This document shows, in pieces, positions 41,448 to 61,814 of a stretch of 64,000 bases of DNA. The notes beneath the pieces are model-generated. The model was given only the letters and a program-made list of their open reading frames with translations, was not told the origin of the DNA and made no database searches. This DNA is from a virus (taxonomy: Duplodnaviria > Heunggongvirae > Uroviricota > Caudoviricetes), in IMG/VR virus record IMGVR_UViG_3300043447_000408, positions 1 through 64,000 of that record; one strand, written 5' to 3'. Position numbers and translations under genes: made by a program. Every line of letters starts with the position of its first letter. Within the stretch, counting starts at the first letter, position 1.

Positions 41448-41945
41448 TTAAATTAATTTCTTGATTGTTTTATCTCTATCACCTTTTCTTAATCTCTCCT
41501 CACTGTTGAAATCAAAAATATCTTCATAATACGTAATTGGGACATTAAGTTTGGTGGATAAGTCACTTAACTCCTTATTCCATTTTATAATGTCGTTGTG
41601 GCACAGTTCAAAAATATCTGTAGGTATCTCTTCATAAACATAAGGTTTGTTTGAGTCATAATTTTTAATCTTTGAGAAGTATGTTTGGTAAGCGTGTGAT
41701 TCTGTACACTCTTTAACGTTTCTTCTCGTTAATAATATCACCTCATCAAAGTTTTTTGATAGTTGTATATTATCGTTGTGATGACATATTATTGTTTTAA
41801 CCACAACATTCTTTTCACTATTATATTCAACTCTACCAGTACCATCAAACGGTTCAAACAAAGGTTTTAAATTTTTCTCTTTTGCTAATTTGTGTAACAA
41901 TGAAGTAGAACCTGTTCTTGGTAGGGAGATTATTAATACACTCAT
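41448..41945 (-). CDS. NodH/Stf0-like sulfotransferase
   Basis: 5'-PSB-like loop IISLPRTGSTSLL at N-terminus; LLTRRN..ES 3'-PB-like; short (165 aa). Confidence 0.5.
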   Translation of the reverse strand: MSVLIISLPRTGSTSLLHKLAKEKNLKPLFEPFDGTGRVEYNSEKNVVVKTIICHHNDNIQLSKNFDEVILLTRRNVKECTESHAYQTYFSKIKNYDSNKPYVYEEIPTDIFELCHNDIIKWNKELSDLSTKLNVPITYYEDIFDFNSEERLRKGDRDKTIKKLI

Positions 41946-42508
41946 AACAATGTTTTATTACTTTTAACTCTCGGATAATCAAAATCAGTTTCGGTCATCC
42001 ACACATTTAACGCATATCTTATTCCCTTAGTTACCGGTAAAACTCCGTGATATGTTTCCGAACCATTGAATGAAATACTATCACCCAATTTCAAATCACA
42101 TAATGTTAAACCGTCCAATTTCTCAAAGTTGTATGGTGGATTCTCATCTTGGGTTAACACAAATTGACCACCTTCAAAATCGTCAGAAAGAACGATAACA
42201 GTCGTCAACTCACTTGACTTGTCTTTATGTAGATTAAGGTACCTACCATCATAGTACGATGTTAAACTTATATTGAAATTTTTTAAATTAAATGTTGAAT
42301 AATCAAACCATAATTTAAACTCTCCATTTTTGTAATTGGTTGTTAATAAATTAATAATTCTTTCTTTAAAATTGGAATCGTACATTCTTCTACAATCCCA
42401 TACTTCGGTTGGTTTATATGAAAAGGGTTCACCGAACTCAAGACAAAAATCAATTATATCTTTAGCGGTTTCTCTATCACAAAAATTATTGTTTATGTTA
42501 TAATTCAT
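41942..42508 (-). CDS. 2OG-Fe(II) oxygenase (prolyl-4-hydroxylase-like)
   Basis: HKD (HxD), distal YHGV His, RYALNVW Arg. Confidence 0.7.
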   Translation of the reverse strand: MNYNINNNFCDRETAKDIIDFCLEFGEPFSYKPTEVWDCRRMYDSNFKERIINLLTTNYKNGEFKLWFDYSTFNLKNFNISLTSYYDGRYLNLHKDKSSELTTVIVLSDDFEGGQFVLTQDENPPYNFEKLDGLTLCDLKLGDSISFNGSETYHGVLPVTKGIRYALNVWMTETDFDYPRVKSNKTLL

Positions 42509-43326
42509 AGTAGATATGAATTTTTCTTTTTATTATGAATTAGTAAATTACCTTCATTTATGAATTTATACAATTCCTCAGCAATTAATTTATATCCATT
42601 GTTACTTGGATGTTTACCTGCGGTTGTGTCCACCCATCGATTATTATCCTCCCAAACATCTTTTCTATTTGTGTCGATTAACAAATTAGCCATTGTTTTA
42701 TCTCTATAACCCCAATATCTTTCACCCTCAATCAAATGAGTTTTATCAACCAGAACATCAATATTTTTGTTAATCATAGTATCAAACGCATCACAAAAAA
42801 CATATCTAATCCCCAACTCTTTAAACATAAATTGTAAGTGTAGAATGTAGTTTTGGTTAACTATGTCATAGTACGTGTCATTAAACAAATTACTAATGTA
42901 GTAATCTCTAAAATTTTTTTCTGCTCTATTATAGTTTACATTATCCCCACTAACACCGTCGAAAATATATTTGAAAAGATGTTGTTTACTCTTATATCGT
43001 TGACCCCAAATATGAAAACTATTCTCGTTCGGAAAAAATGGTAATTGGTCTCTTAATGAGGAGGACCACATAATAACAACAAAATCATCTTGAGTGATGA
43101 TTTCATTTTTTAATTGATAACAAACTGTATTGAATATTGAGTTGTTTGAAAAAGCCCCAACTCCGTTATTTTTAACTTCACATTCAAGTAGTTCTGATAA
43201 GTGTTTTGGCCAACAATATTTTTGTCTTATGTTAGTTCTTTCCTCAGGAATTTCTGTTGTTAATTCTTCCTCAACATTACCCCCAACACCTTCTGTCCAA
43301 CTATCTCCATATGTGAATAACTTCAT
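42505..43326 (-). CDS. SGNH/GDSL hydrolase
   Basis: block I LFTYGDSWTEGVGG, block V AGKHPSNNGYKLIAE. Confidence 0.6.
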   Translation of the reverse strand: MKLFTYGDSWTEGVGGNVEEELTTEIPEERTNIRQKYCWPKHLSELLECEVKNNGVGAFSNNSIFNTVCYQLKNEIITQDDFVVIMWSSSLRDQLPFFPNENSFHIWGQRYKSKQHLFKYIFDGVSGDNVNYNRAEKNFRDYYISNLFNDTYYDIVNQNYILHLQFMFKELGIRYVFCDAFDTMINKNIDVLVDKTHLIEGERYWGYRDKTMANLLIDTNRKDVWEDNNRWVDTTAGKHPSNNGYKLIAEELYKFINEGNLLIHNKKKNSYLL

Positions 43327-43337
43327 AAAACATTATC

Positions 43338-43481
43338 TTATTCCCCCAAGTGTTTAACCTTAATAGCAGTTACAACCGCCTCAAACGCAGTTGCTACTTT
43401 TGTTTTTAGTTCACTTGAAATGGGTGCAACAATTGCTTTAATTGTTTGTGCGGGTCTTTCTATTCTTTCTTTTTGTGCCAT
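43338..43481 (-). CDS. small hypothetical protein (47 aa), not in ORF track
   Basis: MAQKERIERPAQTIKAIVAPISSELKTKVATAFEAVVTAIKVKHLGE fills the gap between flanking genes. Confidence 0.3.
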   Translation of the reverse strand: MAQKERIERPAQTIKAIVAPISSELKTKVATAFEAVVTAIKVKHLGE

Positions 43482-43493
43482 AATAAATTAGTT

Positions 43494-44987
43494 TTAGATT
43501 TTAGGTAATGGTACGTTACTACAACTTGGGCAGTACCAAGAATTACACCAATGTCCACAATAGTTCCAAGGACACCAACAAGTGTTGTGCATCACACTGA
43601 AATCACCGTCACCAATGTCGACTAAGAATAAATCCGAAGATTCAAAGTCCAAACTGTAAATGGTTTTTTGTGCGTGTTCCATTTCCAAACCAGTAATTTC
43701 AACAGTTGTTAATAGATTGGTATTCGCGTCTGTGATTACCAATTTGTCACCAACATACATTTTATTGACTTTTTCAAATCTGGTTGAAGTTGAGTCTTTC
43801 TCCTCAATATAATAAGTTGCTGACGGTGCGTCGGTCCAAGTTCTACCATCAGATAATGTTATTCTGATGTAAATCGTATCAACAGCGCCAGACACCATCG
43901 CATTTAATGTGGTTCCGGTTTGAATTAATGTTGAGTTGTCTTGTGCAACTGTACTATCCCACCCAAATGTTTCAATCTTACTTTGCTCAAATTTAGCTGC
44001 GTGGTTATCATTTAAGTCTACGTAATCAATTGAACGAACATAATCACCCAATTCTATGGTATCAACATCTAATAATGTTCCGTCATATTTTAATATAACA
44101 CTATCATCATCAGTGTGATAATCATTCTTTGCGTAGTTACCTAATTCCTTAGTAATATATTTGTATCTACTTTTCTGATTTAACTTATTAGTTCCCGTAA
44201 CAAATTCATCATCTGAGAATGTTAATGGTATAATTGTTGATTGTGTATATCCACCCATATGGATAACATCCAATTCAGGTCCATATATAATGTCAATACT
44301 TCTTATTATTGAATATCTACCTTGGACTAAGTTGTTTTCGGAAAAAATGAATTCTTGAGCTAAGTGATTTGGTTCTACTAAATTTGCCTTCATAGATTCT
44401 AAATCCTCATTATTTGATATTCTATATAGTGCAGGATAATCCATTGGATTATAAGAAGGGTTTCTTGGTTTTATTAAAATATTTGGGGTCGATGTGGTTG
44501 TATAATCCACTGAATCTATTGTATCAAAATTTATTTCACTAGTCTCAAAATATGTTTTTGGGATAAACTCTGACTGACCCATTAAATTAAAAAATTCAAA
44601 CTTATCCGCACAGTAGGTTTCATCGACTAAAGCGGTGGTATCAAAGGATTGTCTCAGTATAAACTTGTGAACATCGTCTTCAATGTATGGTACCGTAACA
44701 GAACCCACTGGCACAATAAATTCAGTGAATGACATATTATTTTCTTGACACTTTTCTTCTAAAATTTTCTTAAATCTATATTGTTCGGTTAAGGGTTTAT
44801 ATGCATCCCCTTCGGTCCATATTAAATAGAATTCAGTAATGTTGTTGTCAACCAACATCGTAAATAACGAGGTATAATCAAGGAAATCAGCACCCTCATT
44901 ATAAATTGTGGTGTTTGTGTTTATTTCCAAAAACTTCACCGAGTCTCCTGTTTGTAGTAAGTCACTACCAATTATAGTTGCTTTCAT
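43494..44987 (-). CDS. hypothetical protein with C-terminal Cys/Trp-rich tail
   Basis: 497 aa ending HNTCWCPWNYCGHWCNSWYCPSCSNVPLPKI. Confidence 0.55.
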   Translation of the reverse strand: MKATIIGSDLLQTGDSVKFLEINTNTTIYNEGADFLDYTSLFTMLVDNNITEFYLIWTEGDAYKPLTEQYRFKKILEEKCQENNMSFTEFIVPVGSVTVPYIEDDVHKFILRQSFDTTALVDETYCADKFEFFNLMGQSEFIPKTYFETSEINFDTIDSVDYTTTSTPNILIKPRNPSYNPMDYPALYRISNNEDLESMKANLVEPNHLAQEFIFSENNLVQGRYSIIRSIDIIYGPELDVIHMGGYTQSTIIPLTFSDDEFVTGTNKLNQKSRYKYITKELGNYAKNDYHTDDDSVILKYDGTLLDVDTIELGDYVRSIDYVDLNDNHAAKFEQSKIETFGWDSTVAQDNSTLIQTGTTLNAMVSGAVDTIYIRITLSDGRTWTDAPSATYYIEEKDSTSTRFEKVNKMYVGDKLVITDANTNLLTTVEITGLEMEHAQKTIYSLDFESSDLFLVDIGDGDFSVMHNTCWCPWNYCGHWCNSWYCPSCSNVPLPKI

Positions 44988-45078
44988 AAATTTTGTTTCC
45001 TTACAATAAATATATCTATAAAAATATTATTAGAAAAGGATATTTATAATGTTTATTTTTTTATTATATATGTATATA

Positions 45079-45366
45079 TTAAATTAAAGTACTATTTTTC
45101 TTACTCATAATGGGTGTTATATATTCTGAATCAACCTCTTCCCAATAACCTTTGGTACAAGGATTAAAATTCTTCGAAAAAACTTTTTTGTTTAATGGGC
45201 ATCCACAATCACCACAATAAGCAGACCATTTTACACCTTTCAAAACTTCTTTCCTATATTCACAACCCAAACAAACATTTAATCTTTTTTCTGCCAACTC
45301 CTCTTCTATCGGGGTTGGGTTGAATGATGTTTTCCAAGCTTCAAAAATTTCTTTATAGTCTATCAT
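45079..45366 (-). CDS. small Cys-rich (zinc-ribbon-like) protein
   Basis: CLGCEY...YCGDCGCP...NPC. Confidence 0.45.
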   Translation of the reverse strand: MIDYKEIFEAWKTSFNPTPIEEELAEKRLNVCLGCEYRKEVLKGVKWSAYCGDCGCPLNKKVFSKNFNPCTKGYWEEVDSEYITPIMSKKNSTLI

Positions 45367-46154
45367 ATTAATGTCTTGGTTAATTTTGGTAGGTCGTAAT
45401 AATCATAAATACTGTTGTATTTTTTTATAAAATCATCATCTAAATTCACAACACATTTCATATGTTTACTTGAATTAACCGAATGAAGCTCAAATGGTTT
45501 TTCTAAAATATTTGATACCCATTCCTCTAACTTATCTAATTCATCAAAATCAAACCAAATTATTGTTTGGTCATTATTTGTCCAATTTGATACGGGGGTT
45601 AATAGAATGTCAATCATATTAACTGCATATCCCTTGGTGTTAGATTTAAAATATTCTTCTTCTGATTTTTTAAATTTTGATGTTACTGAGATATCTATTT
45701 TTTCATCAATCAATTTCAAATCCATTAGAAATTCACAAATTTTATTCCATCTTTGTTTTTTAGTTGCAACATCTTCTTTTGTAAAAAAGAATAATTCATC
45801 CAATGATAGTTTGGAGAACTTTTTATAAATCTTACTAAATCCCATCCTTTTTAAATCAAATAAGACGTGTTTATATAATGAATAAAATCTTTCGTGTCTT
45901 TGTCTTTTAACAGCAATAATCGGGTAGTTTCTACCAAATTTAGTCTGTAAATCAATTAAAGATTCGTGTCCGTGATAGATATAATTCATTAAGTCTTTTG
46001 TATCTACCGATTTAAAATCAATGTCTGAATTTGCTAATTCCCACTCACCATTATGTGTCTGTACTTTAACATCATTAACTAAACAAGAATAATGAAATGC
46101 GGTAGACGCACATCTCGGTAAACTCAAATAAAAAAACTTATTTTCAACTAACAT
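45363..46154 (-). CDS. sulfotransferase-like protein
   Basis: N-terminal FYLSLPRCASTAF resembles the PSB loop of the 41448-41945 protein. Confidence 0.4.
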   Translation of the reverse strand: MLVENKFFYLSLPRCASTAFHYSCLVNDVKVQTHNGEWELANSDIDFKSVDTKDLMNYIYHGHESLIDLQTKFGRNYPIIAVKRQRHERFYSLYKHVLFDLKRMGFSKIYKKFSKLSLDELFFFTKEDVATKKQRWNKICEFLMDLKLIDEKIDISVTSKFKKSEEEYFKSNTKGYAVNMIDILLTPVSNWTNNDQTIIWFDFDELDKLEEWVSNILEKPFELHSVNSSKHMKCVVNLDDDFIKKYNSIYDYYDLPKLTKTLI

Positions 46155-46723
46155 TATATTAAGGATTTTTTAATTATTTTGGAGGGCCATACATTTATGG
46201 AGTATCTAACTCCGCTTGTTATTTCTTTTACTGAATGTACGATGTTTGAATCAAAAATGAATACACTACCTTCTTTTTTAGGTACCGAATACTCAGTTTC
46301 GTTTATCATATACTTAACATCTCCATCCTCGTATTGGTCGTTTAATTGAATTATATAAGTTATTGTTGCACCATTTACAATTTCGTGACTATCGGGATGC
46401 CAATCTAAAAAATCACCTTCCCCATATCTGTTAAATGAATAATTGTGTATTCGATTATACGTGATTCCATTATATGGGTTTAATTCATTAGATAAAGTAA
46501 TGATTTTATCGGTTAACTCTTTTAGTATTGGTAAGTCTAATAATCCGTTAGTAAAATATGTTCCCATTCTTTTATTACCACTATACTCAGTATTTTCTGT
46601 TAATACTTTCCCGTTAACCACTAATGATGATTTCATTTGTACTAAATTAGTTGATTCACCTAACTTTATTAAAGACTTGCACTCATCAGGAGTTAAAAAA
46701 TTTTCAATGTACCTCGTAAACAT
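46154..46723 (-). CDS. 2OG-Fe(II) oxygenase (P4H-like)
   Basis: WHPDSHE, HSVKE, RYSINVW. Confidence 0.7.
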   Translation of the reverse strand: MFTRYIENFLTPDECKSLIKLGESTNLVQMKSSLVVNGKVLTENTEYSGNKRMGTYFTNGLLDLPILKELTDKIITLSNELNPYNGITYNRIHNYSFNRYGEGDFLDWHPDSHEIVNGATITYIIQLNDQYEDGDVKYMINETEYSVPKKEGSVFIFDSNIVHSVKEITSGVRYSINVWPSKIIKKSLI

Positions 46724-47377
46724 TTATATCAGAGATTTTTCTTTTTTTATATAATCGAACCCAACATTACCGGCAACCACAATTCTATCTATAGTTGAGT
46801 TAGGTGCATTATTTGGGCTATGTGGCATATCCGCCTCCATAATAATTAAATCATCTTCTTCGGGTCTAATCCAATATTCTTTTTTATTGTTTCCTTTAAA
46901 ATATAAAACTCCGTCTTCACCATTCATAACATCAGGCATTTGAATATAATAAACGTACGTATAATGAGGAATAAATGATTTAATTTCTTTGTTTATGTCT
47001 GTGTGTACGTGATATTTGTCTACCCCTTTCAATTCCTCGTGTTTGAATTGTATTTGAACTGGGTCAGTCGAGCGGACAACGTTAACCCAAGCATCTGTAT
47101 TAATTTTATTATATAAAATATTTTTTTCTTTGTATAAATCTTTACAACGGTCAATTCCAATTTGAATGATTTCATCCATTTTTGTTTTAATATCAATTTC
47201 ACCAGTAAAATTGATATTCTGATTCCATTCTTTTACAAAACCATACCCATCAGTTTTAACATCTGGTTGGGATTCTATAATAGAATTGGCTTCTTTTAAT
47301 AAATCCGTTTTATCAGATAAACGATTTAATTTACCTCTCCAAATATATGTCTCTTCGTCAAAGTATAATTTCTCCAT
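46724..47377 (-). CDS. putative cupin/2OG-Fe(II) oxygenase-like protein
   Basis: HVHTD and distal MPHSP, RIVVAG; weaker match. Confidence 0.4.
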   Translation of the reverse strand: MEKLYFDEETYIWRGKLNRLSDKTDLLKEANSIIESQPDVKTDGYGFVKEWNQNINFTGEIDIKTKMDEIIQIGIDRCKDLYKEKNILYNKINTDAWVNVVRSTDPVQIQFKHEELKGVDKYHVHTDINKEIKSFIPHYTYVYYIQMPDVMNGEDGVLYFKGNNKKEYWIRPEEDDLIIMEADMPHSPNNAPNSTIDRIVVAGNVGFDYIKKEKSLI

Positions 47378-47378
47378 A

Positions 47379-48623
47379 CTATATCAATTCTTTTTTAAGT
47401 ACTTTTTTGTTCTTTCTGAAAATGGTTAGATAATTGTTTACAAAAAAAGTAAGTTCGTTTGGTGTAATATCTTCCAATTCAAATGATGATAGTAATTCCA
47501 CATCACTTCTAACTGTGATTGAGTTATTTTTGTCTAATATCTTTTTTAGTTTTGAAGGTATCGGCATTGATGTACAGTCTTTCCAAAACTGCGTGTCATC
47601 TCTCTCACACAAATAATGATATCTTATGAAATTTAAATTCTGTTCGTTTATTTGATAACACCATTTATTATATCTCTCAACATATTGTTCATCGAAGTTT
47701 AAATCAATTAACTTCTTTAACTGCATTATAGTCGACATCAATGATGTCGCTTCTAAAGGTTCAATAAACCCATAAGATAGTCCTATCGATATACTATTCC
47801 CAATCCAACTTCTTTTATGTGTACCAGGATTAAAGTTAAAAACTTTTTGTAAAGTTACTTCGTGACCTAAACGATTCTCAATCTCTTTCTTTGCATCTTC
47901 TACGGTTATATATTTGTCATTGAAAACATAACCGCAACCCCATCTATGTTGTAATGGGATTTTAAACATCCAACCACAATCCATCGACACCATCTCGGTA
48001 TATGTCTTATCATTTAATTGATATTTGTTTTCTTGTGGTAAAAAGAACGCTATTGCCTTATTCATCATCAAGTAATCGGTATACCCAATCCACTCTTCTT
48101 TATGTACACCATCAATAACGATTTTAGCAAATCCACTACAATCAAATACAAAATCTAAATCAATGGTTGTACCATCTTTCATTTTTAATTCTGAAATGAT
48201 ACTATTTTCATTTTTTATCTCACTCACCTCACCGTCAACCCAATTAACTCCTCTACTAATTGCAATTTCTTTAAAGTATTGTGCAACTAATCTTGCATCA
48301 AAATGATAAGCATACGATTTATTAAATTCGCTTGGTCCGTCACCAAAGAAAAGATGCTTTGATAATTCATTATTACCTGTCCAATTATATAAATGTAATC
48401 CACCTTTTACTGTTGATTTAGTTTTCTCAAAGAATTCATTCTGATTAATATCTAATAACACGAGCATCTTACCGAAGTTGGATGTTCCTCCTTCACCAGC
48501 ACCCAATATTCCAATTTTAGAACTCTCTACTAATGTAACACTAACATCCTTCCAAAATTTATTAACCACCAATGAGGTTAACCATCCCGCAGTACCACCG
48601 CCAATTATTACAACTTTTTTCAT
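47379..48623 (-). CDS. flavin-dependent halogenase (tryptophan halogenase family)
   Basis: N-terminal VVIIGGGTAGWLTS; GWMFKIPL resembling the WxWxIP motif (second W is F); AGEGG near N-terminus. Confidence 0.65.
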   Translation of the reverse strand: MKKVVIIGGGTAGWLTSLVVNKFWKDVSVTLVESSKIGILGAGEGGTSNFGKMLVLLDINQNEFFEKTKSTVKGGLHLYNWTGNNELSKHLFFGDGPSEFNKSYAYHFDARLVAQYFKEIAISRGVNWVDGEVSEIKNENSIISELKMKDGTTIDLDFVFDCSGFAKIVIDGVHKEEWIGYTDYLMMNKAIAFFLPQENKYQLNDKTYTEMVSMDCGWMFKIPLQHRWGCGYVFNDKYITVEDAKKEIENRLGHEVTLQKVFNFNPGTHKRSWIGNSISIGLSYGFIEPLEATSLMSTIMQLKKLIDLNFDEQYVERYNKWCYQINEQNLNFIRYHYLCERDDTQFWKDCTSMPIPSKLKKILDKNNSITVRSDVELLSSFELEDITPNELTFFVNNYLTIFRKNKKVLKKELI

Positions 48624-49168
48624 ATTAAATTTTGTTTATTTGGGGTAGTCTTAATTATCGATACCCAATTTACTAATGAATATCTTGTACCCGATTCAAC
48701 CGGTGTGACTCTATGTCTTAAACCCGATTCGAAAACATATAATGTACCTGCTCTTTTTTGTGAGGGTATGTTGTCACCTTTCGAATCTTTTATTTCTAAA
48801 AATCCACCTTCATAATCATCGTTTAAAAGAATGACAGTTGACACGATTCTTTCTTTAAAGGTGGTTGAGTCCTTATCGGTATGCCAACCATAATACTCCC
48901 CGACTTTGTATTCAGTAAATTGAAAAGAGCCGAGACCTGTGACCTCAGCACCATTCAATTTAAAAGATTCTCTTAATATTTCTTTTAATCTAATATTAAC
49001 ATCACCCAAATCATTAATCCAAGATACTGAAGATTTTCTTTCGTTCGGATTTCCGTTCGCAACTCCTGCAGTTTCTAATGTTAATTCTTTGTGACACTTG
49101 TTTAACACATAATGACATTCATCATTTGATAAAAAGTTTTCAAATATGTAGAATTCATTATTTGTCAT
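48620..49168 (-). CDS. 2OG-Fe(II) oxygenase (P4H-like)
   Basis: WHTDKD, HRVTPV, RYSLVNW. Confidence 0.7.
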   Translation of the reverse strand: MTNNEFYIFENFLSNDECHYVLNKCHKELTLETAGVANGNPNERKSSVSWINDLGDVNIRLKEILRESFKLNGAEVTGLGSFQFTEYKVGEYYGWHTDKDSTTFKERIVSTVILLNDDYEGGFLEIKDSKGDNIPSQKRAGTLYVFESGLRHRVTPVESGTRYSLVNWVSIIKTTPNKQNLI

Positions 49169-50156: not shown

Positions 50157-50188
50157 ATAATATAATATAAAGAAAAAAAACTAAAAAG

Positions 50189-53511: not shown

Positions 53512-53520
53512 CTATTATAA

Positions 53521-55283: not shown

Positions 55284-56547
55284 TTAATTCATTCCACATT
55301 TCTAATAAAACTTCCCTTATTGTTGATGATTGGTCACTCTCACTATACTTCTCTTTATAGATTCGATTATAGTTTTCTTTATTGTGAACTAATACCTCTT
55401 GTATCTCTTCTCTAATTTTAATTAACTCTTCTTTCGATTTCTGCTTCAATTTTAATAGTTCATCAACTATCATTTTACTTCTCTTATCTCTATCAGGTTC
55501 ACTATCATAACTTTCGTCCCACCATCTATCAAAAGTTTTATAACCAATTGATTTTAAATACTTTAATGAACCTTCATTACCATATAATAAGAACGGATGA
55601 CCAACCATAATCGGTTTCCATATCTTTTCCGAAAAGAATAGTGTACCAGTGTCTACCAATGTTTCAGTAACAACTGAAACAAAAGTTCTTTCAAAATCTT
55701 CAGTGGTTATGTTACACGCGAGATTGAATCGTAGTTCTGGCATACTATCAATCATAAATGGTGTGTTGTTGAAGAAAAAGTGATGAACTTCAGGAGGTAC
55801 AGGATAAGGTAACGGATGTACGATTTTATCTAAACTTATTAACCCGTCATATATTAATCCCTTTTCATATAAATCAATCATAAAACGTAATCTATGGTGT
55901 CTGGGTTGACGATTGTAGGATAGGAATAGGTATTTGTCATCACTTGGTTTAAAGTCCACCATTGGTCCTTTATATTGATTCCACGGTTCAAAATAGTGAA
56001 TACCTCTTGCTTGGTATCCAAGACCTTTGTTTTTAACAATTTGTTCAGATAATAGATTACCACAGACGTAGTAAATTGAATCGATTGGGAAATTCATCTG
56101 TAATCTCCACTTTTCAATCATTTCAAAATCATAGTTGTTTTGGATACCAGAATAACCCTCATAAATGAAGAACATCAATATTTTACACTTACCATTTCTA
56201 ATATCTTCAATATACTCAGGAGATATACACTTCAACCCAATCTCGTTGTTAAGTGTGAAAAAATCGTGACTATACACGTTGATTATGTATATGTGTTTGG
56301 AATCACCAATCTCCTCTTTTGGGGTGTATTTTATCAGACTACTATGGGTTGGTGTGATGGAATTTCTCATATGTCCGTCTTGAAACATCTCACCTTGTTC
56401 GGTGTACACATTCCATTGACCCCACATATGTGGTATTGCCAATCTCTTTAACTCCTTAATGTACCAGGTTTTGGACGAACCGTTTGGTCTATAATAGTTT
56501 AGAATACTGTCCCAATCCTCTAAACTGCAAATAATTTTTTCTTTCAC
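55276..56547 (-). CDS. putative fucosyltransferase-like glycosyltransferase, paralog of 58758-60041
   Basis: LSYNRQPRHHR, FSEKIWKPIMVGHPFLLYG (GT10-like EKxW), WDESYDSEPDRDKR shared with paralog. Confidence 0.45.
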   Translation of the reverse strand: MKEKIICSLEDWDSILNYYRPNGSSKTWYIKELKRLAIPHMWGQWNVYTEQGEMFQDGHMRNSITPTHSSLIKYTPKEEIGDSKHIYIINVYSHDFFTLNNEIGLKCISPEYIEDIRNGKCKILMFFIYEGYSGIQNNYDFEMIEKWRLQMNFPIDSIYYVCGNLLSEQIVKNKGLGYQARGIHYFEPWNQYKGPMVDFKPSDDKYLFLSYNRQPRHHRLRFMIDLYEKGLIYDGLISLDKIVHPLPYPVPPEVHHFFFNNTPFMIDSMPELRFNLACNITTEDFERTFVSVVTETLVDTGTLFFSEKIWKPIMVGHPFLLYGNEGSLKYLKSIGYKTFDRWWDESYDSEPDRDKRSKMIVDELLKLKQKSKEELIKIREEIQEVLVHNKENYNRIYKEKYSESDQSSTIREVLLEMWNELNG

Positions 56548-56628: not shown

Positions 56629-57597
56629 ATGAAAATTTTAATCACAGGAGGTGCTGGATACTTAGGTTCAGTGATAACAAAAAAACTACTCGATTTGGGT
56701 CATAAAGTGACTGTAATTGACACGTTATTGTTCAATCAGATTTCCCCACTCCAATTTACTTACAATCCAAATTATAACTTCATTTATGGTGATGTTAGAA
56801 ACCTAACCCTGTTTGAAAGGGAAGTTAAATCTCACGATGTTATAATTCCACTAGCCGCAATTGTTGGGTTCCCTGCTTGTAAAAAAGACCCTGAATTAGC
56901 AACACAAATCAACTATAACCAAATCATTAATTTGATGAACTTCATTAGTCCAAATCAAATGATTATCTATCCAAACACAAATAGTGGATATGGTGTTGGT
57001 AAAGATGATAAGTTTTGCACTGAAGAATCACCATTGAATCCGATATCGGTATATGGTGAAACTAAATGTGCTGCGGAAAGACATTTACTTAATTACACCA
57101 ATGCGACTTGTTTTAGATTAGCAACTGTATTTGGTTCTTCTCCAAGAATGAGAACTGATTTGTTGGTAAATGAGTTTGTTTATAAAGCAATGACAGACAA
57201 GTACATTGTTGTATTTGAAAAACATTTCAAACGTAACTTCATTCATATTCAAGATGTTGGTGATGTGTTTACATTCGCTCTTGAAAATTATGAAACAATG
57301 AAAGAGAATGTTTACAATGTTGGGTTGAGTGACGCTAATTTAAGTAAACAAGAATTATTAGAAAAAATAAAATTATACATTCCTGATTTTGCAATCACTT
57401 ACTCAGATTTCTATGAAGACCCTGACAAAAGGGATTACATAGTTTCAAATGAAAAGATTGAAAAGACGGGATGGAAACCAAAGTGGTCTTTGGATGATGG
57501 TATTAAAGAACTGATGAAAACATATCAAGTACTAATACCAAAAATGACATCGGAATTTAGAAATGGATTTCCATTAGGATACGCAAACAATACATAA
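56629..57597 (+). CDS. NAD-dependent sugar epimerase/dehydratase
   Basis: start at ATG giving MKILITGGAGYLGS (track ORF begins at upstream TTG); YGETKCAAE. Confidence 0.8.
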   Translation: MKILITGGAGYLGSVITKKLLDLGHKVTVIDTLLFNQISPLQFTYNPNYNFIYGDVRNLTLFEREVKSHDVIIPLAAIVGFPACKKDPELATQINYNQIINLMNFISPNQMIIYPNTNSGYGVGKDDKFCTEESPLNPISVYGETKCAAERHLLNYTNATCFRLATVFGSSPRMRTDLLVNEFVYKAMTDKYIVVFEKHFKRNFIHIQDVGDVFTFALENYETMKENVYNVGLSDANLSKQELLEKIKLYIPDFAITYSDFYEDPDKRDYIVSNEKIEKTGWKPKWSLDDGIKELMKTYQVLIPKMTSEFRNGFPLGYANNT

Positions 57598-57598
57598 T

Positions 57599-58144
57599 AT
57601 GAGTAATAAATGGGATGAGTTTGTTGAAACTCCATCAAAAGTTTTTGGTTATGAAGTACCAATTTTCACTCCTTCGATTTATAGAGAATATAGGGGTGAA
57701 ATTTTTACCACGTTTCATAGTGAAGAACATCCTGTGATGAAACATATTCATTATGATAAAAGTGAAATCTCAATTCACGGAAGATTTTCAAAATCATATA
57801 AGGGTGTTCTAAGAGGATTACATTACGATACTAAAACTTGGAAATTAGTTCAGGCTGCTGTTGGTGACATTTACTTGGTTGTGTTAGATATGAGACCATC
57901 ATCACCGACATATGGTGATTGGGAATCATTTATGATAACTGAGAAAGATAGAAACCAAGTATTAGTTCCACCAGGTTTTGCAAACGGACATTACGCACTA
58001 ACTGATTGTATGTTTCACTATAATCTATTCTATAAAGATGGTTATGTGGATGCAAATGAACAAGGTGTAGTTAAATGGAATGACCCTGAGTATCAAATGG
58101 AATGGCCGACAGATAAACCAATATTACAAAAAAGAGACAGATGA
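57599..58144 (+). CDS. RmlC-like cupin sugar 3,5-epimerase
   Basis: EYRGEIFTTFH, KGVLRGLHYD, HYALTD. Confidence 0.75.
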   Translation: MSNKWDEFVETPSKVFGYEVPIFTPSIYREYRGEIFTTFHSEEHPVMKHIHYDKSEISIHGRFSKSYKGVLRGLHYDTKTWKLVQAAVGDIYLVVLDMRPSSPTYGDWESFMITEKDRNQVLVPPGFANGHYALTDCMFHYNLFYKDGYVDANEQGVVKWNDPEYQMEWPTDKPILQKRDR

Positions 58145-58773
58145 TAAAAAATTTAGATGACCATCTACCAATTGTTAGGGAGATGTTATGGGATAAAGAA
58201 GGACTTATACAATTTGAGAGAAAAATGGCCGACCATTGGGAAGCTGGTAGAGTTCGTGGACCGATTCACTTAAGTGGTGGAAATGAAGATGAACTAATTG
58301 AAATTTTCAAAAGAGTTAAAACAACAGATTGGGTATTCTCAACTTGGAGGTCTCATTATCACGCATTGTTAAAAGGTGTACCTTCTGAATGGTTAGAAGA
58401 GGAGATATTAGCTGGTAGGTCAATTACAATTGTGAATAAAGACGAGAAGTTTTATTCATCCGCAATTGTTGGTGGTACAATTCCAATTGCTGTTGGTGTT
58501 GCTATGGCTTTGAAACAACAAGGTAGTAAAGATAAGGTGTGGTGTTTCGTTGGTGATATGTCTTTCGAGACTGGTGGTTTTATGGAAAACTACAAATACG
58601 CCAAGAACTTTGACCTCCCAATTCAATTTGTAGTTGAGGATAATGGTGTATCAACAAACACTCCAACAATTGAAACTTGGAAAGTAAAAACTGAAGCACC
58701 TGAGGGTGTAATTTGGTATAATTATATTAAACAATGGCCGCACTACGGAACAGGTAAATGGGTAATTTTTTAA
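58141..58773 (+). CDS. TPP-binding subunit of split transketolase/E1-like enzyme
   Basis: thiamine-diphosphate motif GDMSFETGG...FVVEDNG. Confidence 0.7.
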   Translation: MIKNLDDHLPIVREMLWDKEGLIQFERKMADHWEAGRVRGPIHLSGGNEDELIEIFKRVKTTDWVFSTWRSHYHALLKGVPSEWLEEEILAGRSITIVNKDEKFYSSAIVGGTIPIAVGVAMALKQQGSKDKVWCFVGDMSFETGGFMENYKYAKNFDLPIQFVVEDNGVSTNTPTIETWKVKTEAPEGVIWYNYIKQWPHYGTGKWVIF

Positions 58774-60041
58774 ATTTAGTATATGACGATTGGCACCACA
58801 ATGCAACTCATCCAAATATTAATGGTGAGAAGGAATTTGGTGCGAATAATTTCAGAAGATTCGATGGTTTGATGAATTTTTATGAATTTAATAATTTCAA
58901 AAGATTTAGGATAACGGAGGTTAAGAATCATCCTAATGAAAATTTCTATTATGTTATTGGCCATATTCACGAGATTGGTCACGCATTAAAAGCTCATAAC
59001 ATATTACCATTACCAACCAAGGTAATTAAACATTTAAAAGAAAATCCAAACCTCTATGTTATTTTTCTAAATGAACACGAGGTGGAAACTGAAGAAACCG
59101 TTATTGGAATTGAAAAATGGGTAATTGATAAGGGAATCGACCCAAAACAAATATATGTTATCAACAACAATTACAATTTAAAGAAGTATAAAGAGGATAA
59201 CAATTTAAGTTTGAATGTCCATACAATTAAGTTCTTACCAATTAAAGTTGCTAAGGAGTTAGATATGTACGATACTGATTTCATAACTGATAAACAATCT
59301 GAATTTTTTGTTTCACATAACAGGACACCAAAAGTTCATAGATACGCTCTTTTAGTTTTACTTAAAAAGAACAAATTGTTACAGGAAGTTGATTGGTCTT
59401 TGGTGATGGGGTGGAATCATAAAATGGATATGAAACACACAACAATAAACACCTTCTATCACGAATTATTCACAGAAAAGGAAATTCAAAAAATGAAATC
59501 TGAGATTGATTTTTTTGAGGATATTGATATCAAGAAAAGTAAGTACGAAGACAATATTGATTGGTTTGATAGGGATTGGGATAGTCACGTAAGGAGTCTT
59601 CCGTTTCACATTGAATGGAATCGAGTTTATGAGAAGCAAACATATGAGAACTCATACGTTAACATAACTACGGAATCTTGTTTTAAAAGAGATAATGTTG
59701 TCCATTTAAGTGAGAAAACATTCAAACCTCTTTTCTTTAATCAATATCCGCTTTATGTTGCAAGTATGGACCACGTAAAGACTGTAAAAGATGTTTATGG
59801 GTTTGATGTGTTCGAAGATATATTAGACCATTCATATGATTCTGAATCTGACCAAAGAAAACGATTATTCAAATTGTTTGATGAGATAAAGAGAATATAT
59901 AAAAATAAAAACAAGTTCATTTCAAATTACATTAACCTAAAAGATAGGTTTGAAAATAATAAAAAGTTAGTACTGGAATTATTAAATAACAAAGATGATG
60001 TGGAGTTTTTCACATCACTAATCGAAAATAAGAAAAAATAA
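58758..60041 (+). CDS. putative fucosyltransferase-like glycosyltransferase, paralog of 55276-56547
   Basis: FVSHNRTPKVHR, LSEKTFKPLFFNQYPLYVAS, LDHSYDSESDQRKR. Confidence 0.45.
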   Translation: MGNFLNLVYDDWHHNATHPNINGEKEFGANNFRRFDGLMNFYEFNNFKRFRITEVKNHPNENFYYVIGHIHEIGHALKAHNILPLPTKVIKHLKENPNLYVIFLNEHEVETEETVIGIEKWVIDKGIDPKQIYVINNNYNLKKYKEDNNLSLNVHTIKFLPIKVAKELDMYDTDFITDKQSEFFVSHNRTPKVHRYALLVLLKKNKLLQEVDWSLVMGWNHKMDMKHTTINTFYHELFTEKEIQKMKSEIDFFEDIDIKKSKYEDNIDWFDRDWDSHVRSLPFHIEWNRVYEKQTYENSYVNITTESCFKRDNVVHLSEKTFKPLFFNQYPLYVASMDHVKTVKDVYGFDVFEDILDHSYDSESDQRKRLFKLFDEIKRIYKNKNKFISNYINLKDRFENNKKLVLELLNNKDDVEFFTSLIENKKK

Positions 60042-61814
60042 ATGAAAAAAATTTTAATTACAGGTTGTTCAGGTTTAGTCGGTGTTCATTTGGTTAAGGA
60101 ATCGATTATGAGAAACCATTTAGTCATTGGTGTTGACAAAGTTAAATCGGAGCATTTACCAGAATCTGATAGGTTTAAGTTTTATGAATTAGACCTTATG
60201 AATGAGGAGAACATTACAAAATTATTTGAAGAAGAAAAACCAGACGCAGTATTCAACTGCTTCGGTGTTAAGGGTTCACCATTAAAAGCTAAAACTCAAC
60301 CGGTGGACTTTCTATATCCATCACAAAAAATCAATACTGAAATAATTCACCAATGTGCCAAAAATAACGTTTGGTTAGTTTTTGTAAGTTCTGTTGGTGT
60401 TTACTCTCCTGCTGAGAAATTCTTAGAAACTGATGTATGGAAGACATTACCTTCTGAAAATGATTGGTTTCCTGCTTGGTCAAAAAGAATTGGTGAGTTA
60501 TTGGTAGGTGCATATAGAAAACAATATGGTTATAAAAAATGGACTATTGTTAGACCCGCAAACATATTTGGTGAGTATGATGATTGGAGTGGTAATGGTA
60601 CTGTAATCTCAAGTATTATTAAGAAAGTATATGAAGCCGAGGATGGTGGTGAAATTGAAGCTTGGGGAGATGGTACACCTGTTAGAGATTTTATTTATGC
60701 TAATGACGTTGCAGTTGCTATTTTAAATTGTTATAAGAATAGAGTGAATGACGTAGTTAATTTAGGTTCTGGTGAAACGATAACAATTCAATCAATGATT
60801 GAAGAGGTTATTAAAATTAGTGGTAAAAATTTAACCATTAAATGGGATAAATCAAAACCAAATGGAGATATGCGTAGACAAATGGATACCAGTCTTCAAA
60901 ACGGTTATCAACTATTACCTTTTGTAGGATTTAAGGAAGCACTTAGAAGAACGTATAGTTATTATGAAAAACACTATGGTACACTTGAATTGAATATGGA
61001 CATTGAAGAGTATCTTGAAAAGGGATTTTATGTTGGTAAAGTTAAAGAATTTATTAAAAAACACGAATGGGATGATTATCTAAAAAGATTAGAAAATATT
61101 AGAAAAAAATCTGAAGATAAGAAAGGTTATGGATATCGTTTTGAATTTAGAATACCAACAGACTATTCTGAAGAAGGATTTGATTATGTTAGAACAATAC
61201 CCGCAGATGAGATAGAAGAAAGAGAAAAATTCGTTACCGAAAAAGGTTGGGATGTTGTTCAGCGTTGGTGGGAGTTGAGGGATAGTGAAGGAAATTTCAA
61301 TGACGATATATTCTACTTTAGAGATAAGGTATCAAGATTTGTTCATAAGATATATCCTGAAGTAAAAGAATGGAATATTGGGCACAACGATGGGTTAACA
61401 ATTTATGAAAATGGTGACTTTATTGAACCTCATATTGATGGTCAAAATCCTGATAGATATTGTGTGGTATTAATTTACTTATCAGACGAAAAAGACTATA
61501 TTGATGGTGGAGGAAAATTAATATTACAAGATAAGGGATATTATGATGAAGTAATTCCAATCCATTTAAATTTTGCAATGTTAGATTTCTCAAAAAATAA
61601 TTCAAATCACACAGTTGAAATGGTTAAGAATGATTTTAAAAGATTTACATACATTAATTTCATTCAAGTTAGACCTTATAGTCCTCCCGCAAGATACAAT
61701 GGTAATGAAAAAATTGAAGAGGTGTGGGAACCTGATACTGATGTATGTTATGGTAAACCATTTGAGATTCCACAAACTAATGATGTAAAAAAAGTTAAAA
61801 AAAGTTTAATATGA
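60042..61814 (+). CDS. fusion protein: NAD-dependent epimerase/reductase + 2OG-Fe(II) oxygenase
   Basis: N-terminal MKKILITGCSGLVGVHLV Rossmann; C-terminal EPHIDG, NHTVEMV, RFTYINF; ends KKSLI like other oxygenase paralogs. Confidence 0.7.
   Translation: MKKILITGCSGLVGVHLVKESIMRNHLVIGVDKVKSEHLPESDRFKFYELDLMNEENITKLFEEEKPDAVFNCFGVKGSPLKAKTQPVDFLYPSQKINTEIIHQCAKNNVWLVFVSSVGVYSPAEKFLETDVWKTLPSENDWFPAWSKRIGELLVGAYRKQYGYKKWTIVRPANIFGEYDDWSGNGTVISSIIKKVYEAEDGGEIEAWGDGTPVRDFIYANDVAVAILNCYKNRVNDVVNLGSGETITIQSMIEEVIKISGKNLTIKWDKSKPNGDMRRQMDTSLQNGYQLLPFVGFKEALRRTYSYYEKHYGTLELNMDIEEYLEKGFYVGKVKEFIKKHEWDDYLKRLENIRKKSEDKKGYGYRFEFRIPTDYSEEGFDYVRTIPADEIEEREKFVTEKGWDVVQRWWELRDSEGNFNDDIFYFRDKVSRFVHKIYPEVKEWNIGHNDGLTIYENGDFIEPHIDGQNPDRYCVVLIYLSDEKDYIDGGGKLILQDKGYYDEVIPIHLNFAMLDFSKNNSNHTVEMVKNDFKRFTYINFIQVRPYSPPARYNGNEKIEEVWEPDTDVCYGKPFEIPQTNDVKKVKKSLI

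Follow-up and report, generated by a model that had tools for sequence, protein, structure and literature searches.

Gene content of the window

The window analysed here (64,000 nucleotides, positions 1 to 64,000 of the IMG/VR record IMGVR_UViG_3300043447_000408) comes from a tailed phage that is aquatic and uncultured. Its phage origin is supported by a tail fibre with Peptidase_S74, by M23 and NlpC/P60 peptidases and by relatives in IMG/VR. The window also carries a glycan-type gene set (glycosyltransferases, NDP-sugar enzymes, APS kinase, carbamoyltransferase, halogenase and SGNH hydrolases), together with four to five genes for P4H/PKHD-like 2OG-Fe(II) oxygenases.

Four divergent oxygenase paralogues and a distant fifth

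The initial annotation described an expansion of P4H-like 2OG-Fe(II) oxygenases, with four clear paralogues and a weaker fifth. All five ORFs are present, one of the clear paralogues being the C-terminal part of a fusion protein (60042-61814) and the others standing alone:

41942-42508, minus strand: 2OG-Fe(II) oxygenase paralogue A, 188 aa, ending NKTLL (PF13640, 36.4 bits)
46154-46723, minus strand: 2OG-Fe(II) oxygenase paralogue B, 189 aa, ending KKSLI (PF13640, 48.0 bits)
46724-47377, minus strand: divergent 2OG-superfamily member, 217 aa, ending EKSLI (PF13640, 22.2 bits, below cut-off)
48620-49168, minus strand: 2OG-Fe(II) oxygenase paralogue C, 182 aa, ending KQNLI (PF13640, 61.6 bits)

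Paralogues A, B and C and the fused domain pass the cut-off of 27 bits for Pfam 2OG-FeII_Oxy_3 (PF13640) and keep the HxD...H...R motif. The metal triad is not lost in alignments: H96, D98, H152 and R162 are invariant in 20 orthologues of the standalone paralogues, paralogue B included, and H464, D466, H523 and R534 in 50 fusion homologues. In agreement with the P4H-like label, the nearest solved structures are PKHD-type hydroxylases, PiuC, Bacillus P4H and HIF prolyl hydroxylase, the best match being the PKHD-type hydroxylase 3dkq for paralogue C (E = 7e-7) and the HIF prolyl hydroxylase 6ey1 for the fused domain (E = 4e-4). The P4H/PHD/PKHD prolyl hydroxylases (HIF-PHD, Pseudomonas PPHD, Bacillus P4H, PiuC/YbiX) thus share the HxD...H...R arrangement with both standalone and fused domains, but these weak matches (E = 7e-7 to 4e-4) do not extend beyond the core, and the window oxygenases stand in a context of glycan biosynthesis rather than protein regulation.

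An iterative search linked the four clear oxygenase ORFs to one another, whereas the 217-aa protein was not reached. The latter retains H-x-H-T-[D/E]...P-H...D-R, and its hhalign match is weak, yet HxD and the distal His align. Of ten distant relatives, seven match PF13640 or PF13759 (one above the cut-off); this protein belongs to the 2OG superfamily through distant relatives only.

Such a number of oxygenase genes is ordinary for phages of this kind. T4-like marine phages carry 1-5 2OG oxygenase genes per genome, and S-SCSM1 carries 24 (PMC9602691); in the pelagiphage HTVC008M, at least six are found in 41 kb, adjoining a halogenase. Cyanophages and HTVC008M resemble the window in the Pfam family involved (PF13640/PF13759/PF05721, 31-38% identity) and in having several divergent copies per genome, often beside a 'tryptophan halogenase'. 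Since the window paralogues are old and divergent (23-28% identity) and each is kept as an orthologue in related phages, there was no recent burst; the presumed expansion amounts to a multi-copy state already known from T4-like marine phages.

An SDR-oxygenase fusion in a conserved NDP-deoxysugar operon

The fourth clear oxygenase was proposed to be fused to an NAD-dependent sugar reductase. The gene is a single open frame of 590 codons, in which an Epimerase match (residues 4-242) is followed by the oxygenase domain:

56629-63594, plus strand: conserved NDP-deoxysugar operon around the fusion (NCBIfam/Pfam assignments)
60042-60977, plus strand: atypical extended-SDR domain of the fusion, aa 1-312 (Epimerase, 144.9 bits)
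60984-61676, plus strand: P4H/PHD-like 2OG oxygenase domain of the fusion, aa ~315-545 (PF13640, 29.8 bits, residues 452-541)
61677-61814, plus strand: flexible Lys-rich tail of the fusion (pLDDT < 50), with KKSLI at 61797-61811, then the stop codon

This two-domain architecture recurs across over 110 metagenomic protein clusters sharing 46-96% identity, as well as on four IMG/VR contigs (83-98% identity), so that the fusion is no frame or assembly artefact. It was not found in cultured phages or GTDB reference genomes and is absent from all 153 phage records with a match.

The SDR half yields a confident AF2 model for which Foldseek returns SDR matches only. The best match of residues 1-312 in both sequence and fold is GDP-L-fucose synthase (GMER/WcaG/Fcl), an extended SDR (Foldseek E = 1e-22, target TM 0.8; profile match to the E. 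coli enzyme, E = 1e-32). The GxxGxxG motif and the triad Ser and Lys are present as in this enzyme, but Phe143 takes the place of Tyr136, next to a one-residue insertion (F/Y-P-S-W-S-K), the epimerase residues Cys109 and His179 are replaced by Gly and Tyr/Phe, and the C-terminal oxygenase domain is an extra. The catalytic Tyr is lacking in 86 of 120 members, and the NCBIfam equivalog model scores 141 bits against a cut-off of 500. The Tyr to Phe change, the missing epimerase Cys/His and this low score rule out a canonical GDP-fucose synthase; what stands of the proposed reductase is the extended-SDR fold with its GxxGxxG motif.

The operon comprises, in order, genes for an SDR, an RmlC-like protein, a PDH-E1-alpha-like TPP protein, a 427-aa protein, the fusion, a further SDR and an SGNH-like protein, and this order is kept in relatives at 50-67% identity. 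In P0116-118, this atypical SDR has the downstream SDR, and not an oxygenase, as its fusion partner. The conserved operon and this alternative SDR-SDR fusion support the suggested link of the fusion to nucleotide-sugar chemistry.

A C-terminal tag common to unrelated enzymes

All paralogues were initially described as ending in K-x-L-I/L. This is exact for four of the five (KTLL, KSLI, KSLI and KSLI), whereas paralogue C ends in K-Q-N-L-I. The ending, our main finding, is general to unrelated enzymes and not specific to the oxygenases: besides the five oxygenase ORFs, ten other window genes, mostly unrelated, carry it. These genes, and an untagged one in their midst, are as follows:

14106-14525, minus strand: tagged gene, ending TNLLI (C-terminus)
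22243-22887, minus strand: tagged GDSL-like gene outside the cluster, ending KDKLI (C-terminus)
24930-25622, minus strand: tagged gene adjoining the glycosyltransferase block, ending LKNLI (C-terminus)
39502-41945, minus strand: three tagged genes, DUF6734-like (NKNLI), 414-aa (KRPLL) and 165-aa (IKKLI) (C-termini)
42505-43326, minus strand: tagged SGNH/DUF6071-like hydrolase, 273 aa, ending NSYLL (DUF6071, 26.4 bits)
43494-44987, minus strand: untagged, highly conserved 497-aa ORF in mid-cluster, with a Cys/Trp-rich C-terminus (0/10 members tagged)
45079-46154, minus strand: two tagged genes, Cys-rich 95-aa (NSTLI) and 263-aa (TKTLI) (C-termini)
47379-48623, minus strand: flavin-dependent (Trp-type) halogenase, 414 aa, ending KKELI (Trp_halogenase, 298 bits)

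Of the 88 window genes, 15 end in [IL][IL], where 2.3-4.5% would be expected (p = 1e-9). Between 39502 and 49168, 11 of 12 genes in a row are tagged, among them those for the halogenase, the SGNH hydrolase and a zinc-ribbon protein. Among related phages, 80-100% of the members of about 12 families are tagged, against 0% in the neighbouring sugar-precursor enzyme families. The tag is present in all orthologues of paralogue A (9/9), the halogenase (9/9) and the SGNH/DUF6071-like hydrolase (8/8), in 16/16 members of the family common to paralogues B and C, and in 4/4, 6/6 and 11/11 members of the three families at 39502-41945, in the order listed, for which Pfam matches are weak or absent. The families of the 95-aa and 263-aa proteins, which have no Pfam or PDB match, are tagged in 8/9 and 12/12 members. 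The KSLI terminus of the 217-aa protein is kept in 100 of 120 close homologues; among 111 full-length representatives of its family at 50% identity, 62 end in [IL][IL] and the remainder mostly in K-[ST]-hydrophobic-hydrophobic. The untagged 497-aa ORF has 524 homologues, the best 120 of which share at least 63% identity with it, and neither a known domain nor a usable AF2 model was obtained; it may act as a partner or substrate but does not count as an established part of the system.

In the fusion protein, residues 578-590 have pLDDT < 50 within a confident AF2 model. Its homologues end in [IL][IL] in 59 of 115 cases, compared with a frequency of 1% within the tails (p = 4e-85). The tails of this family (12-50 aa) are unalignable, still terminate in the tag and are longer when tagged than when untagged. 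Some families have gained and lost the tag: in L003 and L032, the fusion lacks it though neighbouring genes carry it. The marine phages compared above differ in this respect: the HTVC008M oxygenase homologues examined stop right after the catalytic core, without a K-x-L-I tail, and its halogenase homologue (37% identity to that of the window) is untagged. Cyanophage homologue matches likewise end before the window tail, at residue 167-169 in the case of paralogue C, whose tail is thus an add-on.

Candidate substrates of the oxygenases

We propose that this gene set builds and decorates a glycan or glycoconjugate and that the oxygenases, as old divergent paralogues, work as tailoring hydroxylases. 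The fused oxygenase, located in an NDP-6-deoxyhexose operon, would most likely hydroxylate a sugar, either as free NDP-sugar or after transfer, with its SDR-like half as the putative binding site for nucleotide-sugar and NAD(P)(H). Two observations weigh against this reading: the nearest solved relatives of the oxygenase domain all act on proteins and none on sugars, and the SDR half lacks the canonical catalytic Tyr.

Hydroxylation prepares glycosylation in collagen (LH3), in the case of Mimivirus L230 and in Skp1 with its hydroxyproline glycosylation. It is possible, though we consider it the less probable reading, that the oxygenases, including the fused one, similarly hydroxylate Pro, Lys, Asp or Asn side chains of phage proteins such as the tail fibre or the 497-aa Cys/Trp-rich protein, creating or preparing glycosylation sites, and that the SDR-like domain merely binds or supplies the sugar donor. 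Besides the protein prolyl hydroxylases as nearest solved relatives and the absence of the catalytic Tyr from most SDR halves (86/120), this would fit the tag of the fusion, which is common to polymer-level tailoring enzymes and not to NDP-sugar enzymes. The tagged cluster also lies directly upstream of, and co-oriented with, the gene for the Ser/Thr/Asn-rich 1276-aa tail fibre; this protein, however, has no Pro-rich or collagen-like repeats and no target is identifiable. Moreover, the fusion gene is always found among NDP-sugar enzymes and its SDR half is alternatively fused to the next SDR, both of which argue against this reading.

Alternative origins of the tag

The tag could also act as a degradation or remodelling signal by which the phage limits the lifetime of its tailoring enzymes. 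The MuA-type motif recognized by ClpX (RRKKAI-COOH) places basic residues before an aliphatic C-terminus, and FtsH and Tsp read non-polar C-terminal degrons; the composition K-K-x-[LI]-[IL]-COOH on a disordered tail, selected at the protein level, resembles such signals, and a host receptor would fit the finding of no phage-encoded one in the window. We nevertheless find this explanation doubtful: the tag marks a single functional class within one gene cluster and not regulatory or early proteins, the preference for Ser/Thr at position -3 is foreign to the MuA-type motif, and destabilizing a dozen late-cluster enzymes would gain the phage little.

Far less probable still, and already largely refuted, is a by-product of nucleotide constraints, be it coupling through ATATGA overlaps, A/T-rich leaders devoid of Shine-Dalgarno sequences or AT-rich composition. 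ATGA overlaps with the next start do occur in 40 of 130 tagged 3' ends, but many ATGA-coupled neighbours are untagged and the same peptide is found in every stop-start register (-4, -1, 0, +1, +2, +3, 21-100 and >100 nt). The second-to-last Leu is encoded by all six codons, at frequencies close to those of the genome (TTA.60/.58, TTG.20/.17, CTA.125/.10), Ser/Thr at -3 uses many codons, and the KSLI of orthologues is encoded by TCT CTG ATA, TCA CTA ATC, TCT CTA ATA or TCG TTA ATA. The last two positions have an amino-acid entropy of 0.49 and 0.61 bits versus a codon entropy of 0.98 and 1.47, with ~1.0-1.2 bits in non-tag families. Comparable endings are present in 4.5% of out-of-frame ORFs and in 33 of 1323 ORFs (2.5%) from 76 cellular loci, AT-rich SAR11 loci included. 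The synonymous turnover of its codons, its occurrence whatever the stop-start spacing and this low cellular background show that the tag is selected at the protein level, although the over-use of ATA for the final Ile (.75 vs.36 genome-wide) and the more frequent tagging of tightly packed genes reveal some nucleotide-level pressure at the last codon.

Equally improbable is that the oxygenases are generic auxiliary metabolic genes unrelated to the glycan genes, draining or sensing host 2-oxoglutarate or repairing DNA: this is the usual reading for cyanophage 2OG-Fe(II) oxygenases (PMC9602691) and homologues at 31-38% identity exist in 350 phage records, but the window oxygenase genes lie among those of other tailoring enzymes, with whose products the oxygenases have a dedicated C-terminal tag in common; one oxygenase is physically fused to a sugar-nucleotide-type domain, and Pfam shows no AlkB or Tet_JBP signature.

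A putative docking peptide for tailoring enzymes

The most likely function of the tag is that of a C-terminal docking or targeting peptide, and we hold the whole explanation, combining a glycan-tailoring gene set with such a peptide, with moderate confidence. Gain and loss of the tag in some families, the nucleotide-level pressure on its last codon and the failure to find a receptor weigh against it. The oxygenases and at least seven unrelated tailoring enzymes end in a flexible Lys-rich tail, K-[S/T/x]-[L/I]-[I/L]-COOH, whose free carboxylate and two aliphatic residues may sit in a pocket of a common receptor, as PDZ ligands or encapsulin cargo peptides do. Class I PDZ ligands correspond to [S/T]-x-hydrophobic-COOH. 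These ligands and the MuA-type ClpX C-motif 2 putatively resemble the tag in the aliphatic residues with terminal carboxylate, Ser/Thr at P-2 and upstream basic residues, but P-2 of the tag can also be Asn, Lys, Glu or Tyr, and a Pfam scan of ~70 window ORFs detected neither PDZ nor TPR nor any similar domain that binds peptides. The cargo-loading peptides of family-1 encapsulins are short C-terminal peptides on flexible linkers that bring unrelated, nearby-encoded enzymes to one partner (PMC8346489). The window tag has a similar Ser-Leu-(Ile/Lys) flavour and similar basic residues, but the encapsulin consensus SDGSLGIGSLKRS differs from the K-K-x-K-[ST]-L-I-COOH of the tag; the latter must be at the extreme C-terminus, no shell or receptor gene was found, and the setting is that of a phage genome. 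Encapsulation peptides of BMCs and cellulosome dockerins follow the same logic, and no description of a shared K-x-L-I docking or targeting tag was found in the literature.

Observed directly are the domains with their catalytic residues, the conservation of fusion and operon, the distribution of the tag, its conservation as an amino-acid sequence and the disorder of the tail; binding, receptor, substrate and biological product are inferred. The putative receptor may be a scaffold, an acceptor macromolecule or a virion assembly intermediate, and the tag would bring the tailoring enzymes of the phage, and not those of precursor synthesis, to the site where the product is decorated.

Genomic context

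The window is AT-rich (~32% G+C), and its genes are short, tightly packed and often overlapping. They encode, among others, a Peptidase_S74 tail fibre (1276 aa), M23 and NlpC/P60 peptidases, a thymidylate synthase, an RNA ligase and DNA methylases. Near-identical stretches are present in IMG/VR viral contigs of 62-160 kb, and megablast of the region 41-62 kb against INPHARED phages retrieved no DNA-level match in cultured phages. The phage genes, the IMG/VR relatives and this lack of a cultured match together indicate that the window is part of an uncultured aquatic tailed phage. The 497-aa protein discussed below has an identical copy on two contigs, one of them labelled as an estuary metagenome; tblastn searches with this protein and with a 628-aa protein detected no match among INPHARED phages. 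PHROGs gave almost no matches for the 10 window proteins queried, a promoter and terminator scan of the window remained at chance level, and no link could be made between the lineage of the window and the 'moraphage' paper. Other features of the window are:

119-2446 (-) and 3459-4446 (-), RNA-repair-like set (cREC_REC domain protein, T4-type RNA ligase, metallophosphoesterase, P-loop kinase) and a second RmlC, canonical (216.8 bits) and distant from the sugar operon
5840-6160 (-), 2x[4Fe-4S] ferredoxin
12969-13385 (-), AdoMet decarboxylase-like ORF
15434-16387 (-), C5 cytosine DNA methylase
20803-21897 (-), ThyA homologue of 364 aa covering a 266-position profile, hence with a large insertion
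41448-41945 and 45363-46154, ORFs considered as sulfotransferases from an N-terminal LPRxxST motif, which Pfam and PDB searches did not support, and now classified as function-unknown
49363-50156 (-) and 51874-53511 (-), APS kinase (58.5 bits), adjoining a small cytidylyltransferase-like ORF, and a nearby NodU/CmcH-type carbamoyltransferase

The APS kinase and the carbamoyltransferase would imply sulfated and carbamoylated products.

An old set of 2OG-Fe(II) oxygenases

The initial annotation described an expansion of P4H-like 2OG-Fe(II) oxygenases comprising four clear paralogues and a weaker fifth, and all five ORFs are present in the ORF calls of the window:

41942-42508, standalone oxygenase
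46154-46723, standalone oxygenase
46724-47377 (-), fifth ORF, encoding a 217-aa protein
48620-49168, standalone oxygenase
60042-61814 (+), fusion of a short-chain dehydrogenase/reductase (SDR) with an oxygenase domain

The four clear paralogues match PF13640 with 36.4, 48.0, 61.6 and 29.8 bits (gathering threshold, 27 bits), and iterative searches join them mutually while leaving out the fifth ORF. The metal-binding triad is retained throughout: the Fe(II) ligands and the 2OG-binding Arg are invariant both in 20 orthologues of the standalone genes (H96/D98/H152/R162) and in 50 homologues of the fusion (H464/D466/H523/R534), the position of the fusion's distal His being set by its family alignment, as a five-way MAFFT alignment misplaced it. 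These four window ORFs are predicted to catalyse 2OG- and O2-dependent reactions.

The fifth ORF scores 22.2 bits against PF13640, under the cut-off, and its close homologues carry no precomputed Pfam domain. Its H-x-H-T-[D/E], distal P-H and D-R motifs are kept in nearly all of 120 homologues; they align with those of the clear paralogues, yet hhalign comparison of the family with these paralogues was non-significant (probability 1.8%). Among 1.84 billion representatives, a profile search retrieved 213 relatives; of ten distant ones, seven match PF13640 and/or PF13759 and one exceeds the threshold (35.8 bits). We therefore accept the fifth ORF as a divergent member of the 2OG superfamily by transitivity rather than by direct evidence.

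Several copies are indeed present, but the term expansion should not suggest novelty. The standalone paralogues of the window are mutually only 23-28% identical, and related phages hold separate orthologues of each one, indicating old paralogues rather than a recent burst. Such numbers are ordinary for marine and aquatic phages: T4-like cyanophages hold one to five 2OG oxygenase genes and S-SCSM1 holds 24 (PMC9602691). In the pelagiphage HTVC008M, a 41-kb stretch contains at least six, with a 'tryptophan halogenase' as neighbour. Cyanophage genes from 350 phage records share 31-38% identity with the standalone paralogues. The window also encodes a short (414 aa) flavin-dependent halogenase (47379-48623 (-)), whose gene overlaps an oxygenase gene; its closest relative in cultured phages is the 'tryptophan halogenase' of HTVC008M (37% identity), and it shares 28-31% identity with those of cyanophages. 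The label P4H-like is a fair one, since the nearest solved relatives are PKHD-type hydroxylases, PiuC and bacterial P4H for the standalone paralogues, and HIF prolyl hydroxylase, PPHD and PHD2 for the fused domain. To our knowledge, the latter are all protein-directed.

A widespread SDR-oxygenase fusion in a deoxysugar operon

The fusion is real. Its gene is a single unbroken frame of 590 codons, with no missed stop, and the same architecture recurs on four IMG/VR contigs (83-98% identity) and in more than 110 protein clusters holding both Pfam domains (coverage 91-100%, identity 46-96%, contigs up to 267 kb). None of the 153 INPHARED records matching the fusion is covered beyond the SDR half, and no match in 185,579 GTDB species genomes extends beyond residue 393. 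The AlphaFold2 model is confidently two-domain (pLDDT 86.5, pTM 0.85), with a boundary at about residues 312-320 and a disordered end (residues 578-590). As regards a double-stranded beta-helix fold, residues 446-543 are modelled confidently and as rich in strands; a Foldseek search of the PDB with the whole model ranked SDR chains only (query TM <= 0.47) and is uninformative on the oxygenase half. We found nothing relevant in the literature on SDR-2OG fusions acting on NDP-sugars, and this widespread variant appears to be uncharacterised.

In every relative checked at 50-67% identity, the fusion gene lies in the same operon, which is conserved in the related loci L001, L003 and L032:

56629-63594 (+), deoxysugar operon in the order SDR, RmlC-like, PDH-E1-alpha-like TPP enzyme, ~425 aa protein, fusion, second SDR, SGNH-like, E1-beta-like (Transket_pyr)
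58141-58773, alpha-like gene of the split PDH-E1-like TPP enzyme; its beta-like partner lies just past the window end and follows the SGNH-like gene in relatives
61811-62785, second SDR

By analogy with branched-sugar pathways, the split E1-alpha/beta pair may point to a C-branched or two-carbon-extended NDP-sugar. In three metagenomic protein clusters (P0116-P0118), the atypical SDR (63% identity) lacks the oxygenase domain and is instead fused straight to the counterpart of the downstream SDR (74% identity to 61811-62785). The conserved operon and the SDR-SDR fusion tie the SDR half to nucleotide-sugar metabolism, as the initial annotation proposed, and the latter also marks the oxygenase as a separable module. 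Neither fixes the oxygenase's substrate; we infer both this substrate and the final product.

The initial annotation named the first half an NAD-dependent sugar reductase. It is an extended SDR with an epimerase-type match (PF01370, 144.9 bits, residues 4-242) and an invariant GxxGxxG motif (G8, G11, G14), but not a canonical reductase. GDP-L-fucose synthase (Fcl/GMER) is its closest family (E = 1e-32; Foldseek E = 1e-22), yet it scores 141.3 bits against an NCBIfam equivalog cut-off of 500. From the Fcl/GMER triad Ser107-Tyr136-Lys140, Ser and Lys are kept, whereas Tyr136 falls on Phe143 in the HMMER alignment, and the epimerisation residues Cys109 and His179 are replaced by an invariant Gly and by Tyr/Phe, respectively. 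Phe143 adjoins a one-residue insertion in the motif F/Y-P-S-W-S-K, where 86 of 120 homologues have Phe at this position and the other 34 have Tyr. This motif is also present in standalone cellular SDRs, which argues for a functional subfamily rather than decay. The helices DWFPAWSKR (fusion, 60468-60485, aa 143-148) and VYFPVGWMKR (61811-62785) replace YxxxK at the active site, and DW[FY]PSWSK is one of two patterns that retrieve cellular standalone SDRs, e.g., from Pelagibacteraceae and Patescibacteria-group MAGs.

A C-terminal tag shared by unrelated enzymes

The K-x-L-I ending that the initial annotation ascribed to the oxygenase paralogues is present on them but is not theirs alone: it occurs in 15 of the 88 window genes, where Leu is always second to last and the final residue is Ile in 13 and Leu in 2, against an expectation of 2.3% from internal dipeptide frequency or 4.5% from out-of-frame ORFs (p = 1e-9). 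In the region 39502-49168, 11 of 12 consecutive genes carry this tag, scored as [IL][IL] at the last two positions. They encode the three standalone oxygenases, the fifth ORF, the halogenase, an SGNH/DUF6071-like hydrolase, a DUF6734-like protein, a Cys-rich 95-aa protein and three proteins without known fold.

We surveyed the window together with 25 related loci (574 ORFs from simple calls requiring an ATG start and a length of 50 aa or more; as the phages are related, their sequences do not represent independent samples). About a dozen families are tagged in 80-100% of their members, whereas the tag was never found in the carbamoyltransferase, APS kinase, SDR, RmlC-like, TPP and GT-like families. 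In distant lineages, it is also present on radical-SAM-like proteins and on proteins of ~830-850 aa. In the family of the fifth ORF, 100 of 120 close homologues end in KSLI; among full-length representatives at 50% identity, 62 of 111 end in [IL][IL] and most others in K-[ST]-[LIVF]-[LFIMV]. Turnover of the tag can be seen at 55276-56427 (-), which ends in ...EMWNELNG while the L001 orthologue (5274-6425) ends in ...MWDELKII. Unlike those of the window, the oxygenases and halogenase of HTVC008M stop right after the core and are untagged, and matches to cyanophage homologues end 12-14 residues short of the C-terminus of the window proteins. A literature search for a common C-terminal motif in phage enzymes found nothing relevant.

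Two other causes of the ending were rejected. Base composition does not account for the tag, given its frequency in out-of-frame ORFs and in a cellular control, where 33 of 1323 ORFs (2.5%) from 76 loci, including SAR11 at 26-31% G+C, have such ends. Translational coupling is likewise disfavoured. The tag occurs at all distances to the next start (-4, -1, 0, +1, +2, +3, 21-100 and >100 nt), which excludes a fixed nucleotide signal. Orthologues encode KSLI with synonymous codons (TCT CTG ATA, TCA CTA ATC, TCT CTA ATA, TCG TTA ATA). In tag families, the two C-terminal positions have the lowest amino-acid entropy (0.49 and 0.61 bits) with no matching fall in codon entropy, and no comparable dip in amino-acid entropy is seen in non-tag families. 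Leu codons at -2 match genome usage (TTA.60/.58, TTG.20/.17, CTA.125/.10), many codons are used for Ser, Thr, Lys and Asn at -3, and codon skew is limited to the last Ile, towards ATA. In the fusion family, 59 of 115 otherwise unalignable tails of 12-50 residues end in [IL][IL], compared with 1% within the tails (p = 4e-85), and tagged tails are longer than untagged ones. Judged from these sequence patterns, the ending, with consensus K-K-x-K-[S/T/x]-[L/I]-[I/L]-COOH on a basic tail, is a lineage-wide tag on unrelated, putative tailoring enzymes and is under selection at the protein level.

Possible function of the tag

The tag divides putative product-decorating enzymes, which carry it, from makers of soluble precursors, which do not, and its tail is disordered in the sole model, that of the fusion. 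Most simply, and most likely, the tag would act as a docking or targeting peptide and recruit tailoring enzymes to one common partner. The main rival, suggested by resemblance to the MuA/ClpX motif, is a degron; restriction of the tag to one pathway fits this poorly. The closest analogies of the putative docking peptide are family-1 encapsulin cargo-loading peptides and, in binding mode, class I PDZ ligands ([S/T]-x-hydrophobic-COOH). Of 127 unique tagged ends, 63 have Ser/Thr at P-2 and all have a hydrophobic P0; scanning of ~70 window ORFs detected no domain of the PDZ or TPR kind. Encapsulin cargo-loading peptides are likewise short C-terminal peptides on disordered linkers common to unrelated co-encoded enzymes, but the SDGSLGIGSLKRS-like consensus of family 1 (PMC8346489) is not matched by K-K-x-K-[ST]-[LI]-[IL]-COOH, and the 64-kb window contains no capsid gene for a cognate HK97-fold shell.

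Two candidate partners are encoded nearby; the putative receptor may also be a host protein or an intermediate of virion assembly. The first is the untagged 497-aa ORF (43494-44987 (-)) that sits amid the tagged genes, with 524 metagenomic homologues but no match in Pfam, the PDB or cultured phages. Its conserved Cys/Trp-rich end reads ...VMHN-x-CWCPWNYCGHWCNSWYCPxC, with six Cys in 116 of the 120 homologues listed at >=63% identity, a variable residue after HN (S/T/A/P/G) and the C-terminus x-K-[ILV]. Intein/Hint-like blocks were seen by eye before this peptide (S296-VILKYDGT..., ...LFLVD..VMHN468); Pfam did not support this reading, and the predicted structure is of low confidence (pLDDT 50, pTM 0.32). 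The protein could be self-processing, or a substrate or scaffold of the tagged enzymes. Directly downstream of its gene, in the window as in three related contigs, lies a 47-aa ORF (43338-43481 (-), MAQKERIERPAQTIKAIV...).

The second candidate is the tail fibre (34847-38677 (-)), directly downstream of the tagged cluster and co-oriented with it. It is rich in Ser, Thr and Asn, with many N-x-S/T sites and tandem repeats (TSTASLNTYTSSNTTNINAIH..., and GYTPYNATNPNGYI three times); composition and position make it a candidate glycosylation target.

We tentatively propose, giving it somewhat less than an even chance, that a four-residue code, K-[S/T/x]-[L/I]-[I/L]-COOH at the end of a flexible basic tail, recruits at least a dozen unrelated tailoring enzymes to one receptor in a large group of uncultured aquatic phages. 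Hydroxylases, the halogenase, esterases, radical-SAM proteins and the SDR-oxygenase fusion would all be marked in this way, and this viral system for docking enzymes or loading them as cargo would follow the logic of encapsulin targeting peptides and cellulosome dockerins. Its outcome would be either a 'factory' that decorates glycans or proteins, or virions with enzymes loaded on their surface or inside.

Implications

What phages use 2OG oxygenases and 'tryptophan halogenases' for has been unclear ever since cyanophage genomes first became available. Gene order, the fusion and the tag link these enzymes to a glycan-tailoring pathway, turning the label 'auxiliary metabolic gene' into a testable hypothesis. 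The SDR-2OG fusion and the F/Y-P-S-W-S-K subfamily of SDRs are candidates for new nucleotide-sugar chemistry. The tag is the finding worth pursuing: if it is a docking signal, it would be a compact, portable address label of four residues and a free carboxylate that sets which enzymes cooperate, across the genomes of hundreds of uncultured phages. In that case, it would also provide a sequence rule for finding pathway members without known fold, and could serve to co-localise enzymes in engineered systems.
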